Shown here: piece after piece, positions 3,622 through 20,803 of the stretch
How positions within the stretch are numbered: position 1 is the stretch's first letter
How the letters are laid out: each line of letters begins with the position of its first letter
Source: Bacillus phage vB_BspP_Dartukuta
Length of the DNA stretch: 60,862 nucleotides
Sequence record: MW749009.1
Direction: 5' to 3' (one strand)
The notes under the pieces: generated by a model
What the model was told of the DNA's origin: nothing
The model's database searches: none
Seen by the model: only the letters and a program-made list of their open reading frames with translations
Position numbers and translations under genes: made by a program

Positions 3622-4131
3622 CTAAATAAGAAGCGCTCGTTTACCGCGGTATGGGTTATCGAACGGAATATCATCATCAAAGCTATCGTAATTAGGCTCT
3701 TGCTGCCCGCCCGCTTGAGCGTTAGCTTTAGGAGCAGGGCTACGCGCTGGCTGTTGAGTTCGCTGAGCGGGCGCGTCTGTATTGTCACTACGGCTATCAA
3801 GCATCTGCATAGTGCCGCCCATATCCACAATAACTTCCGTTGTGTAGCGCTTCACGCCGTCCTTTTCCCATTCACGGGTTTGTAATCGGCCCTCGATGTA
3901 AACCTTTGAGCCTTTGACAAGATACTGCCCAGCAATCTCTGCGATCTTCCCGAAAAGGGAAACACGGTGCCATTCGGTACGCTCCTGCATTTGACCGGAC
4001 TGTTTATCTTTCCAGCTATCGCTAGTGGCTAGCGTTAGGCTTGTAACTGCGTTGCCATTCGGCATGTAGCGGACTTCAGGATCACCGCCAACATTGCCAA
4101 TTAGAATTACTTTGTTTATTCCGCGCGCCAT
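3622..4131 (-). CDS. ssb: Single-stranded DNA-binding protein
   Basis: N-terminus [40 protein letters not shown] (OB fold), Gly/Gln-rich linker, acidic C-terminal tail DDDIPF. Confidence 0.95.
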
Positions 4132-5913: not shown

Positions 5914-7518
5914 CTAAGCGGCTTCGAGCAGGCTCATGGCGTATGAATATCCAGACCAATTATCAACACCTGCATTTTCAAGCGCTGTTAGCTTTGCTAA
6001 AGCGTCAAGCAGCTCCCTGTACTCTGCTTTTGTGATTGTGATGAGCTCAGGCGCGGCATTGGCTGTCACTGCTAGATCTTGATCTGACGCTTGCTCTGCA
6101 AAAGTTTCATGTTTCACTTCAGCGGCGGGCTTGGCGCGAGCATTTTCCTCTGCCAGTTTTTGTTTTTTGCTCTCAGCATCACGCTCAGCCTTTGCTTGTT
6201 CTTCAGCGCGAATACGCAAGCGCTCAGCTTCGATGCGCTTTTCCTCTGTCGCCTTGTGGTCAGAAATGCGCAATCTAACCAATGAACAAAAATCATCATT
6301 CGACTTACTGATAAAGCCTTGTATGTCTGAAAACAGAAACTCAAAACCGGAGGCAAGCTCTTTATAACTGTCAATGTTTGTGCTGATGATCTCTGCCTGC
6401 GCATTGATCTCAATTTTGGCGCGAGCAAGCTCAGAGTCTGCTGCATCCTGCAGGCTTGCGATAGTGCGCTTACCTTTCATTGCACCTGCAAAATCAGCAC
6501 GGAAGCTTGGTATTTGAAACGATCCAAGACGCTTATTGATTGCCGCAACATGATCATTTAACGCAGCGGCAGCATTGTTAAGAATCTCAGCGCGGCGATT
6601 GTCCTTCATAGCCTTGACCAGCTTGTCGAGGTTTAGGCGAGTGGTGCGCGTTTCCTCGCCAATATCGTCTAAGGTGCGAAACAACTCTTCAATGCTGGCT
6701 GTCTGGCTTAGCGCGTGCTGCTTGGCTGCTTGAATGCGACCCTCAACGTCCTTACACCATTTGACTGTTTGCTCTGCATCAGCAAAGTCTTGATCTGTTA
6801 CCAGGTCACGATTGATTGAGCCGATAACGCTTAGCGCATGCGACTTAAACAACGCAAGGTTGCTTGCAGTCACCATGCCGGTTACTTCGATACGCAAGGC
6901 TGGCAGCGAATCAGGCGCTTTACCTGCTGCCTCAACCTGCTTAGGCGCAGGCGCAACAAACTCAGCAAGGTCTTGCTCGAATTGCTTCCAGCCGGCAACA
7001 AGCTGCTCAGCACGACCAGGTACAGCCCGGTATTCCATGTGGACCATATTTTCTTCTGTGCCATCGGAGCACACGAAAATCACATACTCAGCACCACTAA
7101 CAAGCAGCTGCTGCTCAAGCTGCCAATAATAAGCTGGGGAAAGATCGCCAGCTTTAACCTGCTCAACAAGCTCAGCATTCCACAGCTTGTGCTCAAAGAT
7201 AACGTCACCGAGCATGCTTAGGCCATCCATGCTTGCTAGGTACTGGTCCTTAGTACAAACGACCGGATAAAGTTCTTCGCCAATCATTTGTTCAACAATT
7301 GGCCGGGCCAGCGCTTCAGTAACATGGCCGCGATCAAAGTTCTTTTGAGTGAATGCGTCGATTTCAGGCGTAAGGCCAGTTTTTTTCTGTGCCAGCAACT
7401 CGGTGCGCGACTGGTATTTAGAGCAGCCCATCATAGCCGGCGCTTCAGAAGCGGTAAAATACTCGGCTCGCAAAGCAAGCCATTCTGGTGTTCCCTGCTC
7501 TACAGTATGAACTTTCAT
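5914..7518 (-). CDS. YqaJ-type phage exonuclease (recombination exonuclease) with long C-terminal coiled-coil region
   Basis: N-terminus QGTPEWLALRAEYFTASEAPAMMGCSKYQSRTELLAQKKTG ... FEHKLWN is typical of YqaJ/lambda-Exo-like PD-(D/E)XK nucleases; it sits directly upstream of RecT. Confidence 0.8.
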   Translation of the reverse strand: MKVHTVEQGTPEWLALRAEYFTASEAPAMMGCSKYQSRTELLAQKKTGLTPEIDAFTQKNFDRGHVTEALARPIVEQMIGEELYPVVCTKDQYLASMDGLSMLGDVIFEHKLWNAELVEQVKAGDLSPAYYWQLEQQLLVSGAEYVIFVCSDGTEENMVHMEYRAVPGRAEQLVAGWKQFEQDLAEFVAPAPKQVEAAGKAPDSLPALRIEVTGMVTASNLALFKSHALSVIGSINRDLVTDQDFADAEQTVKWCKDVEGRIQAAKQHALSQTASIEELFRTLDDIGEETRTTRLNLDKLVKAMKDNRRAEILNNAAAALNDHVAAINKRLGSFQIPSFRADFAGAMKGKRTIASLQDAADSELARAKIEINAQAEIISTNIDSYKELASGFEFLFSDIQGFISKSNDDFCSLVRLRISDHKATEEKRIEAERLRIRAEEQAKAERDAESKKQKLAEENARAKPAAEVKHETFAEQASDQDLAVTANAAPELITITKAEYRELLDALAKLTALENAGVDNWSGYSYAMSLLEAA

Positions 7519-7522
7519 TGCT

Positions 7523-8290
7523 TTACTCCTGACTTGATTCGATGGCTGGATCTGCTTTGATGTTTAGGATTATTTCGCGCTGCTCATCGCTAAGCGTGTG
7601 CTTTGACTCGATCATTGAAACGATGCGCTCAGGTGTAGTTTTGCCGATACCTACGGCCGCTTCCCACTTGGGCAGGTTGGTTGCTAGGCTTTCATCGCAA
7701 TACGCTGGCAGCGACTCAATGCGCTCTGCTGCTGGGGTCGCCGCCCGATTAATGTCACCCATGTCCTTAGTAGGCGTATCCATTAGCTCTTCAGCTACCG
7801 GCATGCCGCGCAGCACATCGGGGAACACATCACGCAAAGCAAAGGCACGCGCTCGCATTTGACGCATACGCTTCGGGTATTGCGACCAGGGTCCCTGCTT
7901 TCCAGACAAGCCAGCAGCTTTAGCATCGGTCATGCTGAAAGTTCGCACTTGTTCTTCTTCGCCGCGACGCTTAACCCGGCAGGTTGCCGTTTCGCCGTCG
8001 TCTGTTTCGTAAATGTGCTCGCACAGTGGCGAGCCTCGAACAATACCGATAACAGCGTCACCCCATAGGGATGGCCGGCCATTGATTACTGCGATGTTTT
8101 GCATGGCCTGCATCGGCTGCAAGCCAAGCTCTAAGCCCCACTGGATAGCAACTAGGATATTGCCAGAGTTGCCCTTGAAGTCTTTGGGCACAATGTCAGA
8201 CTTCGATAAAATCTCAGCAAACCGGATTGCTTCATCAAGTGATTGCGGCGTCAGACTGAAGCCTGGCTTTTGTTCTGTTAAAGCATTCAT
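7523..8290 (-). CDS. recT: RecT-family single-strand annealing recombinase
   Basis: ATG at 8290 (MNALTEQ...) with GGAG 7 nt upstream. Pattern DIVPKDFKGN..ILVAIQWGLELGL.P....NIAVINGRPSLWGDA matches RecT as I remember it; paired with the exonuclease. Confidence 0.8.
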   Translation of the reverse strand: MNALTEQKPGFSLTPQSLDEAIRFAEILSKSDIVPKDFKGNSGNILVAIQWGLELGLQPMQAMQNIAVINGRPSLWGDAVIGIVRGSPLCEHIYETDDGETATCRVKRRGEEEQVRTFSMTDAKAAGLSGKQGPWSQYPKRMRQMRARAFALRDVFPDVLRGMPVAEELMDTPTKDMGDINRAATPAAERIESLPAYCDESLATNLPKWEAAVGIGKTTPERIVSMIESKHTLSDEQREIILNIKADPAIESSQE

Positions 8291-8367
8291 GTTTTTCTCC
8301 ACGCAAATGCAAGCCATCGCAACTTGCGATTGCTAAAAAAAATGATTTAAAAGTTGGTTGTTGCAGA

Positions 8368-18526: not shown

Positions 18527-20803
18527 ATGCAAAAACAAGAGCTAAGCAAAGAAGAATACGACGAGATCTTTGAGGAGATCGAGAATCAGCCGCGCTGGCG
18601 AGCCATAGCAGATAAGGAATCGGACTATGCAGACGGTAATCAACTTGATAGCGAACTGCTCAAGCGGCAGCAAGAGCTGGGTATTCCTCCGGCAGTTGAG
18701 GATTTGATTGGTCCAGCACTGCTATCAATTCAAGGTTACGAGGCAACGATACGAACAGACTGGCGCGTGACGCCTAACGGTGATCCAGGCGGCCAAGATG
18801 TAGCTGATGCAATCAACTTTAAGCTGAATCAGGCTGAGCGTGAATCGAAGGCTGACCGCGCATGCAGTGCTGCTTTCAAGTCGCAAATCACATGCGGTAT
18901 CGGATGGGTTGAGGTTGCGCGTGACTCCGATCCGTTTAAGTTTCCGTATCGCTGCAAGACGATCCACAGAAACGAAATCCACTGGGATATGAAGGCCACT
19001 GAGCCGGATTTGAGTGACGCTAGATGGTTACGCAGACAGCGTTGGTTGTCTCCAGAGCGCATTGCGTTAGTGTTTCCTGAGAAAAAGGAGCTGATTCTCG
19101 CAGCAGGTAAACATGGCTCGCAGTGGTGGCAAGATGAAACGCTCACATTTGAAGGCGGCGACGGTACTGGCCTCGAAAACGCATGGAATGAAGGCCGCTC
19201 ATGGACGATGCATGAAGACCGTTGGTACAACCCTCGCAGTAAAGAGCTGTGTGTCGCTGAGTTATGGTACCGCCGATGGGTACGAGTGCCTGTTATTAAG
19301 ACGCCCAACGGCAGGGTCGTTGAGTTTGATGAGTCAAACCTACAGCATGCCATTGCAGTCGCGAGCGGCACAGCTGAAGTAACGCAAGCAACTATCGCTA
19401 GAGTACGCCGTGCCTACTGGCTTGGACCACACAAACTGCATGACGGCCCGACACCTTACGCACACCGCCACTTCCCGTATGTGCCGTTCTTTGGATTCAT
19501 AGAAGACGCCACAGGCATTCCATACGGCTACGTGCGCTCAATGAAGTACGCGCAAGACTCGCTGAACAGTGGTCTATCAAAGCTGCGATGGGGCATGAGC
19601 GTTGTGCGTGCCGAGCGCACAAAAGGCGCAGTCGCCATGACTGATTCACAGTTTCGCAAACAGATTGCTCGACCAGATGCGGATATTGTCTTGGATGCGG
19701 CGCACATGCAGCAGCCTGGTGCGCGCTTTGAAATAAAACGAGACTACCAGCTGACTGACCAGCACTATCAAATGCTGAACGATAACCGAGCAAGCATTGA
19801 GCGCGTATCGAATATCACGGCAGGTTTTACCGGCAGGTCCGGCACAGCAACAAGCGGACTGCAAGAGCAGACTCAAGTCGAGCAGTCGAATCAATCACTC
19901 GCTAGCATCATGGATAACTTCAGAGAGGCACGTTCGCAAGTTGGCGAACTGCTTATGAGCATGATTATCCGTGACATTGGCGAGAAGCAAACTGAGGTGG
20001 TGATTGAGGGCGATGCAATCACTGCGGATCGTACTGTAACGCTCAACGCGCCTGAAACTGACCCCGCAACTGGCGTGGCATACCTATCAAACGACATTAA
20101 CCGCACTCGACTCATGGTGTCGCTCGAAGACGTACCAAGCACTAACAGCTACAGATCGCAGCAGTTACAGGCGTTGACAGAAGCAATCAAGCCACTGCCA
20201 GCCGAGTACCTGAGCGCAGCTATTCCGTTCTTAACGCAGTTGATGGACGTGCCGTTCAAACGTGACCTGATTGAAGCGTTCCGCGCAGTCGGTGAGACGC
20301 CAAGCCCTGAGCAGATCGAAGAACAAACGCAGCAGGCGGTACAGCAGGCGCTGAAGGACGCAGGCAACGAACTGAAGCAGCGTGAACTTGAAATCAAAGA
20401 GCGCAAAGCCGACAGCGAAGTGAAGAACTTGGATGCCAAAGCAGTTCAGGTGGGCGTACAAGCAGCTTTCGCAGCAATGCAGGCGGGTGCTCAGATAGCA
20501 CAGATGCCAATGATTGCGCCTATTGCCGACACAATTATGCAGGGTGCCGGTTACCAGAGGCCAAACCCAATGGGTGACGATCCAGACTTTCCGACACCAC
20601 AGCAGGCAGCCGCTACAGATATCCGTAATCCTTATGTGCAAGGTGAGGGCGCTCAACTAGGTAGCGAGCAGGTTGCCGAATTGTCGCAAGTTAACCAGAA
20701 CACCAGCCCACAATTTCCACCGGTACCTAGCGATGGCCAGTCAGCCATGCAAGGTATTGAAACAACCGATACAGCAGACAACCTGCTAGGAGGCATGCAA
20801 TGA
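18527..20803 (+). CDS. Portal protein (758 aa), inferred
   Basis: Large ORF immediately after TerL with a Gln/Ala-rich helical C-terminal region; assignment by position and size. Confidence 0.6.
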   Translation: MQKQELSKEEYDEIFEEIENQPRWRAIADKESDYADGNQLDSELLKRQQELGIPPAVEDLIGPALLSIQGYEATIRTDWRVTPNGDPGGQDVADAINFKLNQAERESKADRACSAAFKSQITCGIGWVEVARDSDPFKFPYRCKTIHRNEIHWDMKATEPDLSDARWLRRQRWLSPERIALVFPEKKELILAAGKHGSQWWQDETLTFEGGDGTGLENAWNEGRSWTMHEDRWYNPRSKELCVAELWYRRWVRVPVIKTPNGRVVEFDESNLQHAIAVASGTAEVTQATIARVRRAYWLGPHKLHDGPTPYAHRHFPYVPFFGFIEDATGIPYGYVRSMKYAQDSLNSGLSKLRWGMSVVRAERTKGAVAMTDSQFRKQIARPDADIVLDAAHMQQPGARFEIKRDYQLTDQHYQMLNDNRASIERVSNITAGFTGRSGTATSGLQEQTQVEQSNQSLASIMDNFREARSQVGELLMSMIIRDIGEKQTEVVIEGDAITADRTVTLNAPETDPATGVAYLSNDINRTRLMVSLEDVPSTNSYRSQQLQALTEAIKPLPAEYLSAAIPFLTQLMDVPFKRDLIEAFRAVGETPSPEQIEEQTQQAVQQALKDAGNELKQRELEIKERKADSEVKNLDAKAVQVGVQAAFAAMQAGAQIAQMPMIAPIADTIMQGAGYQRPNPMGDDPDFPTPQQAAATDIRNPYVQGEGAQLGSEQVAELSQVNQNTSPQFPPVPSDGQSAMQGIETTDTADNLLGGMQ

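Follow-up and report, generated by a model that had tools for sequence, protein, structure and literature searches.

We analysed a 60,862-nucleotide stretch of DNA from Bacillus phage vB_BspP_Dartukuta (record MW749009.1; hereafter the window), focusing on a gene for a YqaJ-type exonuclease that lies directly behind a gene for a RecT-like single-strand annealing protein. The 534-amino-acid (aa) exonuclease is identical (100%) to QXN70869.1, annotated 'putative YqaJ viral recombinase family protein', and we found no near-identical DNA for the window in the phage and E. coli collections searched. Here, we describe the architecture of this protein, assign its last 46 residues by profile comparison to the family of the T7 RecBCD inhibitor gp5.9, trace the exchange of this and other small domains at the C-terminus of related exonucleases, and weigh what a tethered inhibitor could do in phage recombination.

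A RecT/Exo/SSB block with a four-part exonuclease

The exonuclease is encoded by one real, single gene within a leftward recombination block that also carries genes for the RecT-like protein and a phage single-stranded DNA-binding protein (SSB) (Table 1). Reading the junction directly, we found a gap of 4 nt between recT and the exonuclease gene; the Shine-Dalgarno sequence of the latter lies inside the end of recT (…AGGAGTAAAGCAATG…), and the two genes are translationally coupled. An SSB gene is also found 3' of the homologous exonuclease gene at three further loci (L004, L006 and L013), and a tRNA gene and a CsrA homolog sit just upstream of the window's block. A PHROG search placed phrog_7655, 'RecE-like recombination exonuclease', over aa 1–498 of the protein (E 8e-214).

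Table 1. Positions of the features discussed, in the window unless another locus is named (ORF, open reading frame)
Feature	Position	Strand	Basis
Exonuclease gene, 534 aa, single uninterrupted ORF	5914..7518	-	ORF listing; stop codon 5914-5916
Lambda-exonuclease/YqaJ-type PD-(D/E)xK nuclease domain, aa 1-190 (predicted)	6949..7518	-	PF09588, TIGR03033, PDB 3syy, Foldseek
Catalytic motif D98 ... E109-H110-K111 (SMDG ... FEHK)	7186..7227	-
Conserved helical-bundle domain, aa 205-430 (predicted)	6229..6906	-	AlphaFold2, alignment
Variable Ala/Glu/Lys/Arg-rich helix passing into disordered linker, aa 431-488	6055..6228	-
gp5.9-family module, aa 489-534, APELITITKAEYRELLDALAKLTALENAGVDNWSGYSYAMSLLEAA	5917..6054	-	PF25708
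RecT-like single-strand annealing protein gene, partner upstream of exonuclease	7523..8317	-	phrog_561 E 9e-62, PF03837
Phage SSB gene, downstream in same leftward block	3622..4131	-	PF00436 E 1.3e-37
tRNA-Arg(TCT) gene	9883-9959	-
CsrA homolog	10703-10876	-	PF02599 E 6e-25
Portal gene	18527-20803	+
'Polyvalent protein' ORF, 4,203 aa	42617-55228	+
TnpB-type ORF, 365 aa	59445-60542	-
ORF with dUTPase domain, 253 aa	1599-2360	-
phiYeO3-12 gene 5.9	L014 1183-1365
Further genes in the 5.9 position	L015 1195-1380; L016 1183-1365
SbcC/Rad50-like ATPase with C-terminal module	L032 2105-4141

Profile searches, a 49-sequence alignment (A1) and two AlphaFold2 models together divide the protein into four predicted parts: a nuclease, a helical-bundle domain, a linker rich in Ala, Glu and Lys, and a C-terminal gp5.9-family module. 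The first is predicted to be a nuclease of the lambda-exonuclease type with an intact D-E-x-K site. It matches PF09588 (aa 12–144, E 1.4e-13, 51.8 bits against a cutoff of 22), TIGR03033 (68.8 against 68.05) and, by sequence, LHK-Exo of Laribacter hongkongensis (PDB 3syy, E 6.7e-5), and D98, E109 and K111 are unchanged in all 49 homologs of the alignment. The modelled domain, with predicted local distance difference test scores (pLDDT) of 83–98, retrieved lambda exonuclease (3sm4, E 2.5e-8, probability 1.0) and LHK-Exo (3syy, template modelling score 0.75, probability 1.0) in Foldseek. These two are its best structural and sequence matches and share its catalytic residues, although both are single-domain proteins of ~200–230 aa with neither the helical domain nor the C-terminal module. 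RecE was a weak Foldseek match (3h4r, E 0.03, against 1e-8 for lambda exonuclease) and has its nuclease at the C-terminus rather than the N-terminus; on these comparisons the PHROG label 'RecE-like' is a functional one and does not denote orthology.

In the model, a short disordered stretch (aa 193–201) separates the nuclease from the middle domain, which comprises a beta-hairpin (210–219) and long helices (242–270, 277–331, 353–388 and 407 onward). Modelled alone, this domain reached a pLDDT of 93 and a predicted template modelling score of 0.79. It matches phrog_16197, which has no assigned function; profile search found no Pfam family for it, the searches made returned no specific structural or family match, and its sole match in BFVD was a stand-alone uncharacterised phage protein of 302 aa. 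We asked whether gp26 of Burkholderia phage DC1 is related to the middle domain but lacks the nuclease; hhalign detected no similarity, and we rejected this idea. The domain may serve as a stalk or as a scaffold for oligomerisation. Its last helix is prolonged by the linker, which then becomes disordered (pLDDT <50 at aa 460–488) and differs between the aligned homologs in both length and sequence.

The original prediction had described a YqaJ-type exonuclease fused to a coiled-coil tail of ~330 aa that was rich in Ala, Glu and Lys and made the protein unusually long. The nuclease assignment is borne out by the profile, Foldseek and active-site evidence above. The C-terminal ~340 aa are indeed predominantly helical in the AlphaFold2 models, but they do not form one coiled coil: the helical-bundle domain, the variable linker and the 46-aa PF25708 domain take its place. 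The skewed composition holds for the linker (A 26%, E 17%, K 10%) and not for the middle domain (A 13%, E 7%, K 7%). Nor is the length unusual. At E<=1e-5 the ORF has more than 7,400 database matches, mostly 'YqaJ viral recombinase family' proteins of ~545–580 aa from Pseudomonas prophages, and the middle domain is present in 2,380 representatives of 50%-identity clusters, nearly always at ~200–430 of proteins of 500–650 aa. Because the domain recurs in more than 2,000 such clusters, a length of ~550 aa is normal for the family, and a nuclease followed by a helical tail is, by sequence comparison, its ordinary and widespread architecture. What had been overlooked is the informative part of the protein, its last 46 residues, which profile searches score highly as a gp5.9-family member.

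A gp5.9-family module at the C-terminus

The terminal module (aa 489–534) scores 66.7 bits alone, and 62 bits within the whole protein, against PF25708 ('Phage T7 gp5.9 RecBCD inhibitor'; cutoff 24.5), and it also matches phrog_6234 and phrog_4790, 'host RecBCD nuclease inhibitor'. The compact-family profile aligned with gp5.9 of phage phiYeO3-12 at an hhalign probability of 98% (E 6e-14). By these profile measures, the module is a bona fide, core member of the gp5.9 family. No Gam family appeared among the Pfam or PHROG matches of the protein, and a word-indexed protein search with the 46-aa module returned 3 matches. In alignment with gp5.9 the module retains a strand-like TITxxEY segment, and E491 aligns with the T7 gp5.9 contact residue D4, the remaining contact residues being matched only approximately. 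Its net charge is −4 over 46 aa, and that of the last 60 aa of the protein is −7.

T7 gp5.9 acts as an acidic, dimeric mimic of DNA and blocks the DNA site of RecBCD; both its binding to that site and its inhibition of the nuclease have been demonstrated (PMC9836394). It carries a net charge of −8 and scores 27.8 bits on PF25708. The connection between it and the window's module is clear from sequence comparison and is a transitive one, running through the gp5.9 proteins of T3-like phages. In T3-like and Berlinvirus phages (phiYeO3-12, KNP3 and ETEP21B), the T7 5.9 position is taken by a gene (Table 1) that is flanked by 5.7 and exonuclease gene 6, overlaps gene 6 and encodes a protein whose N-terminal half (VTxTRDAWND..AYI..LEK) is 57% identical to T7 gp5.9 (E 1e-9) and whose C-terminal half carries L-x-A-L-x-A-x-GVDNWxGY, the motif of the window's module. 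Since it shares one half with each, phiYeO3-12 gp5.9 bridges T7 gp5.9 and the GVDNW family. Gene 5.9 overlaps the start of gene 6 in T7 as it does in phiYeO3-12. The phiYeO3-12 protein is annotated as 'not homologous to bacteriophage T3 or T7 gp5.9'.

The T7 (PDB 8B1R) and T3-like proteins have in common with the window's module their PF25708 membership, an N-terminal strand-like segment followed by an amphipathic helix, an overall acidic character and a coding position tied to a phage exonuclease gene; the T3-like proteins additionally share ALxAxGVDNWxGY. They are free proteins of 52–60 aa, whereas the module is fused to the C-terminus of an unrelated exonuclease of the lambda type. The module is also less acidic and has neither their acidic tail nor their 7-residue helix insertion.

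The same three-domain fusion of PF09588 and PF25708 recurs in 32 of the 120 best clusters, at 56–92% identity, and in prophages of Bisbaumannia pacifica, Halomonas sp., Photobacterium damselae and Pseudomonas sp. UMAB-08. This bears on the concern that the long ORF might be an artefact, in which a sequencing frameshift (the case raised in the original prediction) or a misassembly fused the nuclease gene with the next one downstream. All that speaks for it is the linker's unusual composition. The continuous architecture in those 32 clusters from independent metagenomes, its presence in the four named gammaproteobacterial genomes, and a 92%-identical protein on another ~59-kb contig refute it, and we found no conserved internal Shine-Dalgarno sequence and start codon ahead of the module. 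With the same single ORF in dozens of independent assemblies, we regard an artefact as virtually inconceivable. The gp5.9-type ending is a minority variant within the family, since just 3 of 122 full-length 50%-cluster representatives carry it.

An exchangeable C-terminal position

Relatives of the exonuclease share the nuclease, the middle domain and the charged linker, and end in at least four unrelated small domains. Besides the gp5.9 type, we distinguish type b ('RIKLGDINARLGF...') and type c ('ARVTDLxALV...GVTLxQVAA'); no Pfam match was found for the other C-terminal types. Different C-termini occur on backbones that are 87–93% identical. P0017, a fusion, shares 93% identity over its first ~420 aa with P0043, a type b protein, and only 88% with the nearest fusion. 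In P0025 (gp5.9 type) and P0044 (type b), which are 87% identical, the linker part 'AELSDTAFVAE' is shared before the C-terminal regions diverge. Judged by these alignments, the type of ending does not track the phylogeny of the backbone, and the C-terminal module is an exchangeable cassette.

Among family members of at least 450 aa, 163 of 246 end in Ala-Ala, where ~2% would be expected by chance (proteins P0001–P0275; positions 5914–5922 in the window). This end is independent of the module type (…LLEAA, …REDAA, …EQVAA, …QRIAA). The ssrA tag and other ClpX C-terminal degrons have a similar terminal AA, which may suggest regulated turnover.

The gp5.9-family module is also carried by other scaffolds. 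DC1 gp26 (phrog_21091, 431 aa), encoded in a replication-gene neighbourhood, ends in it, and the sister family of that protein, phrog_16469, ends in type c. In a Clostridia prophage (L032, Zhenhengia yiwuensis contig NZ_JACRSY010000047.1), it forms the C-terminus of an SbcC/Rad50-like ATPase (AAA_23, SMC_N, phrog_77) whose gene lies upstream of a RecT gene, with one short ORF between them and a metallo-hydrolase gene after recT; by sequence, the module has here been joined a second time, independently, to a DNA-end-processing protein. In both DC1 gp26 and the ATPase the module stands, as in the window, at the extreme C-terminus behind a charged or low-complexity linker, whereas the N-terminal parts differ, that of gp26 being a helical protein without assigned function. 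Streptomyces and Glycomyces proteins of 79–300 aa likewise carry the module at their C-terminus (L029, L031, L033, L034, L036, L038, L040 and L042), with no recognisable N-terminal Pfam domain among those scanned. The commonest form is a free protein of 47–67 aa, found in phages and prophages of Enterococcus, Clostridium, Bacillus, Proteus, Shigella, Lysinibacillus, Brevibacillus, Xanthobacter and others; a stand-alone module also occurs in Myducvirus.

These distributions bear on whether the variable module is an adaptor that brings the exonuclease to the RecT annealase or to SSB, a role akin to the partner binding that the original prediction had proposed for the tail. Every gp5.9-type fusion examined adjoins a RecT-superfamily annealase (window, L004, L006, L007, L020 and L032), and specific contacts between exonuclease and annealase are described for lambda and RecET (PDB 6m9k; Muyrers 2000, as cited in PMC3511549). 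However, the gp5.9 type (window, L004, L006, L007), type b (L012) and type c (L013) all occur beside RecT, and type c also occurs beside ERF, in phage CF63a. Because the module type is independent of RecT versus ERF, we rejected an annealase-specific adaptor. The module moreover ends DC1 gp26 amid replication genes and stands alone in Myducvirus, and T7 is not known to have a RecT, so that there the module is no RecT adaptor. We consider an adaptor role very improbable for the module; the middle domain may yet mediate oligomerisation or partner binding.

Function of the fused module

The 'Bacillus phage' host label looks doubtful on sequence grounds. The portal shares 70–76% identity with its counterparts in F116-like Pseudomonas phages and in P. 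stutzeri phage 8P, the recombination genes are similar to those of Pseudomonas and Halomonas prophages, the closest relatives of the exonuclease occur in Pseudomonas, Stutzerimonas, Halomonadaceae and Photobacterium, and the window encodes CsrA, as does phage CF63a. Among the endolysins of Bacillus phages, the GH24 enzyme of this phage is a singleton, and it has no cell-wall-binding domain (PMC11674121). Because of the portal, the exonuclease relatives, CsrA and the endolysin, a gammaproteobacterial host with RecBCD is likely; RecBCD is reported to be highly conserved in Gram-negative bacteria (PMC6438905).

Three further genes of the window stood out. A giant 'polyvalent protein' ORF combines ddrB-ParB, InPase, LPD5, LPD1, LPD23, a weak GNAT, ART-PolyVal (ADP-ribosyltransferase) and LPD38 domains. 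A second ORF has OrfB_IS605 and Cas12f1-like TNB domains and is a TnpB-type (IS200/IS605 family) gene in a phage genome, and in a third a dUTPase domain is confined to the C-terminal half (aa 125–252), with ~120 N-terminal aa left unassigned.

The reading we favour, with moderate confidence, is that RecT and the exonuclease act together with a tethered, Gam-like anti-RecBCD decoy, the module being a dimeric acidic decoy for a host end-processing nuclease. The gene would contribute the exonuclease to a two-gene RecT/Exo system for single-strand-annealing recombination in an F116-like temperate phage, and its flexible tether would carry the function that lambda Gam or T7 gp5.9 supplies separately. 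The module may pair as a parallel dimer, like gp5.9, and as an acidic mimic of a DNA end it would occupy the DNA-binding site of the host enzyme, which in the probable gammaproteobacterial host would be RecBCD. The linear ends used by Exo and RecT would thereby be protected from host degradation. Fusion would ensure co-expression and may put the decoy wherever the phage exonuclease works, and one protein would probably both resect DNA ends and shield them from the host. In favour of this reading stand the strong PF25708 and PHROG matches, the transitive link to T7 gp5.9 with its known blocking of RecBCD, the case against an annealase adaptor, the likely presence of RecBCD in the host, and the reported lack of an inhibitor in Pseudomonas RecTE and BAS operons. 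The module is recurrently fused to, or encoded beside, DNA-end-processing proteins (exonuclease, SbcC-like ATPase, gene 6). Its stand-alone occurrence as proteins of 47–60 aa in lytic phages argues for an autonomous function, and its exchange between backbones that are 87–93% identical is as expected of a host-interaction cassette.

Pairing might also serve the exonuclease itself, the module being a mere dimerisation or oligomerisation device with no host target and the other C-termini alternative oligomerisation domains. T7 gp5.9 forms an obligate parallel dimer, with the N-terminal strand as a brace, and the module of the window still has the strand-like TITxxEY segment; compared with the stand-alone versions, the fused ones are less acidic and have no acidic tails, and the module always lies at the extreme C-terminus behind a flexible linker. 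We nonetheless consider such a device unlikely. The stand-alone versions (47–60 aa) found in many lytic phages must be functional by themselves, frequent exchange between such similar backbones is unexpected for a structural element, and most family members do without the module, as the 3 of 122 representatives indicate. Nucleases of the lambda-exo type, furthermore, oligomerise via the nuclease fold itself.

Several observations weigh against the favoured reading of the module as an anti-RecBCD decoy. T7 gp5.9, the sole PF25708 member with experimental data, is an outlier of its family. A direct sequence link to it failed: the compact-family profile aligned with T7 gp5.9 at an hhalign probability of 1.4%, and a phmmer search of the C-terminus against the PDB did not find the gp5.9 chain; the link that holds is the transitive, syntenic one. 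The GVDNW segment is absent from T7 gp5.9, and the C-terminal half of T7 gp5.9, which touches the RecB arm via E36, D38/E39 and E45, has no counterpart in the module. T7 gp5.9 has an N-terminal strand and one long helix and forms a parallel coiled-coil dimer, whereas the module is predicted as a helix-turn-helix (helices 497–515 and 524–533 around a turn at ENAGVDNW in the AlphaFold2 monomer), its LITIT segment not being assigned as the strand expected in a gp5.9-type fold. Fused modules carry net charges of −1 to −8 (mean −5.4) over ~50 aa, compared with −8 to −13 for stand-alone relatives, whose acidic tail they lack. These differences in charge, fold and RecB-arm contact weaken a straight transfer of function from gp5.9 to the fused module. 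T7 gp5.9 also inhibits MukBEF through DNA mimicry (PMC7617805), so that RecBCD may not be the only target. Finally, phages of Firmicutes and Actinobacteria commonly carry members of the gp5.9 family. Hosts of these groups generally use AddAB or AdnAB (in Actinobacteria, AdnAB/RecBCD-like systems) and not RecBCD, so that RecBCD cannot be the target everywhere.

The inhibition of MukBEF, the spread of the family among phages of hosts without RecBCD and the lack of conservation of the RecB-arm-contacting part would all fit a DNA mimic directed at another host machine, either an SMC-type complex (MukBEF/MksBEF) or a DNA-end-sensing defence system, in place of RecBCD. The repeated fusion or adjacency to exonucleases, an SbcC-like ATPase and RecT modules points instead to DNA-end metabolism, and RecBCD inhibition is the one genetic or biochemical phenotype that has been described in the family. 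On this evidence we judge a target other than RecBCD decidedly unlikely.

As an anti-RecBCD decoy, the module would complete a set of functions known from lambda Red (Exo, Beta and Gam), whose three activities (a 5'-3' PD-(D/E)xK exonuclease of lambda-exo fold, an adjacent annealase and an anti-RecBCD DNA mimic) would all be represented here. They would occupy two genes rather than three, with an annealase of the RecT type and an exonuclease extended by a helical domain of ~230 aa. The Gam-like function would be a fused domain unrelated to Gam in sequence, the likeness being a functional analogy only; lambda Gam itself is reported to have no interaction with the other Red proteins (PMC11611040). 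Rac RecE/RecT and the Pseudomonas RecTE-type operons (RecTE_Psy) likewise pair RecT with an exonuclease in a prophage, and in a P. syringae prophage (L013) RecT is followed by a 546-aa member of the present family. The Pseudomonas RecTE and BAS operons, RecTE_Psy included, are reported without any RecBCD inhibitor, and adding an inhibitor raises recombineering efficiency in some species (PMC6438905). A literature search found no published description of a natural fusion between an exonuclease and a RecBCD inhibitor.

A more far-reaching and tentative joint reading, which we hold to be possible but doubtful, would turn the C-terminal position of the exonuclease family and of at least two other scaffolds into a hot-swappable slot that accepts small modules aimed at the host. 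The gp5.9-like module would be the only occupant of the slot that is currently recognisable, types b and c being unrecognised inhibitors of host end-processing or defence complexes. Through the tether, DNA ends would pass from the host nuclease, once blocked, to the exonuclease of the phage, and the near-universal Ala-Ala would act as an ssrA-like degron and restrict how long the whole device lasts.

If the anti-RecBCD decoy reading is true, the protein would be a natural Exo-'Gam' fusion, with the three Red functions in two genes and the anti-RecBCD activity physically tied to the recombinase. Natural RecT plus Exo-gp5.9 pairs, taken from prophages of Pseudomonas, Halomonas and Photobacterium, would be ready candidates for recombineering in these three genera. 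The exchangeable slot points to further unnamed small modules, possibly anti-defence factors. The gp5.9 family itself is far broader than T7, its common form being the GVDNW type that stands alone in many phages of both Gram-positive and Gram-negative bacteria, and this breadth raises the question of what its members target in hosts without RecBCD.

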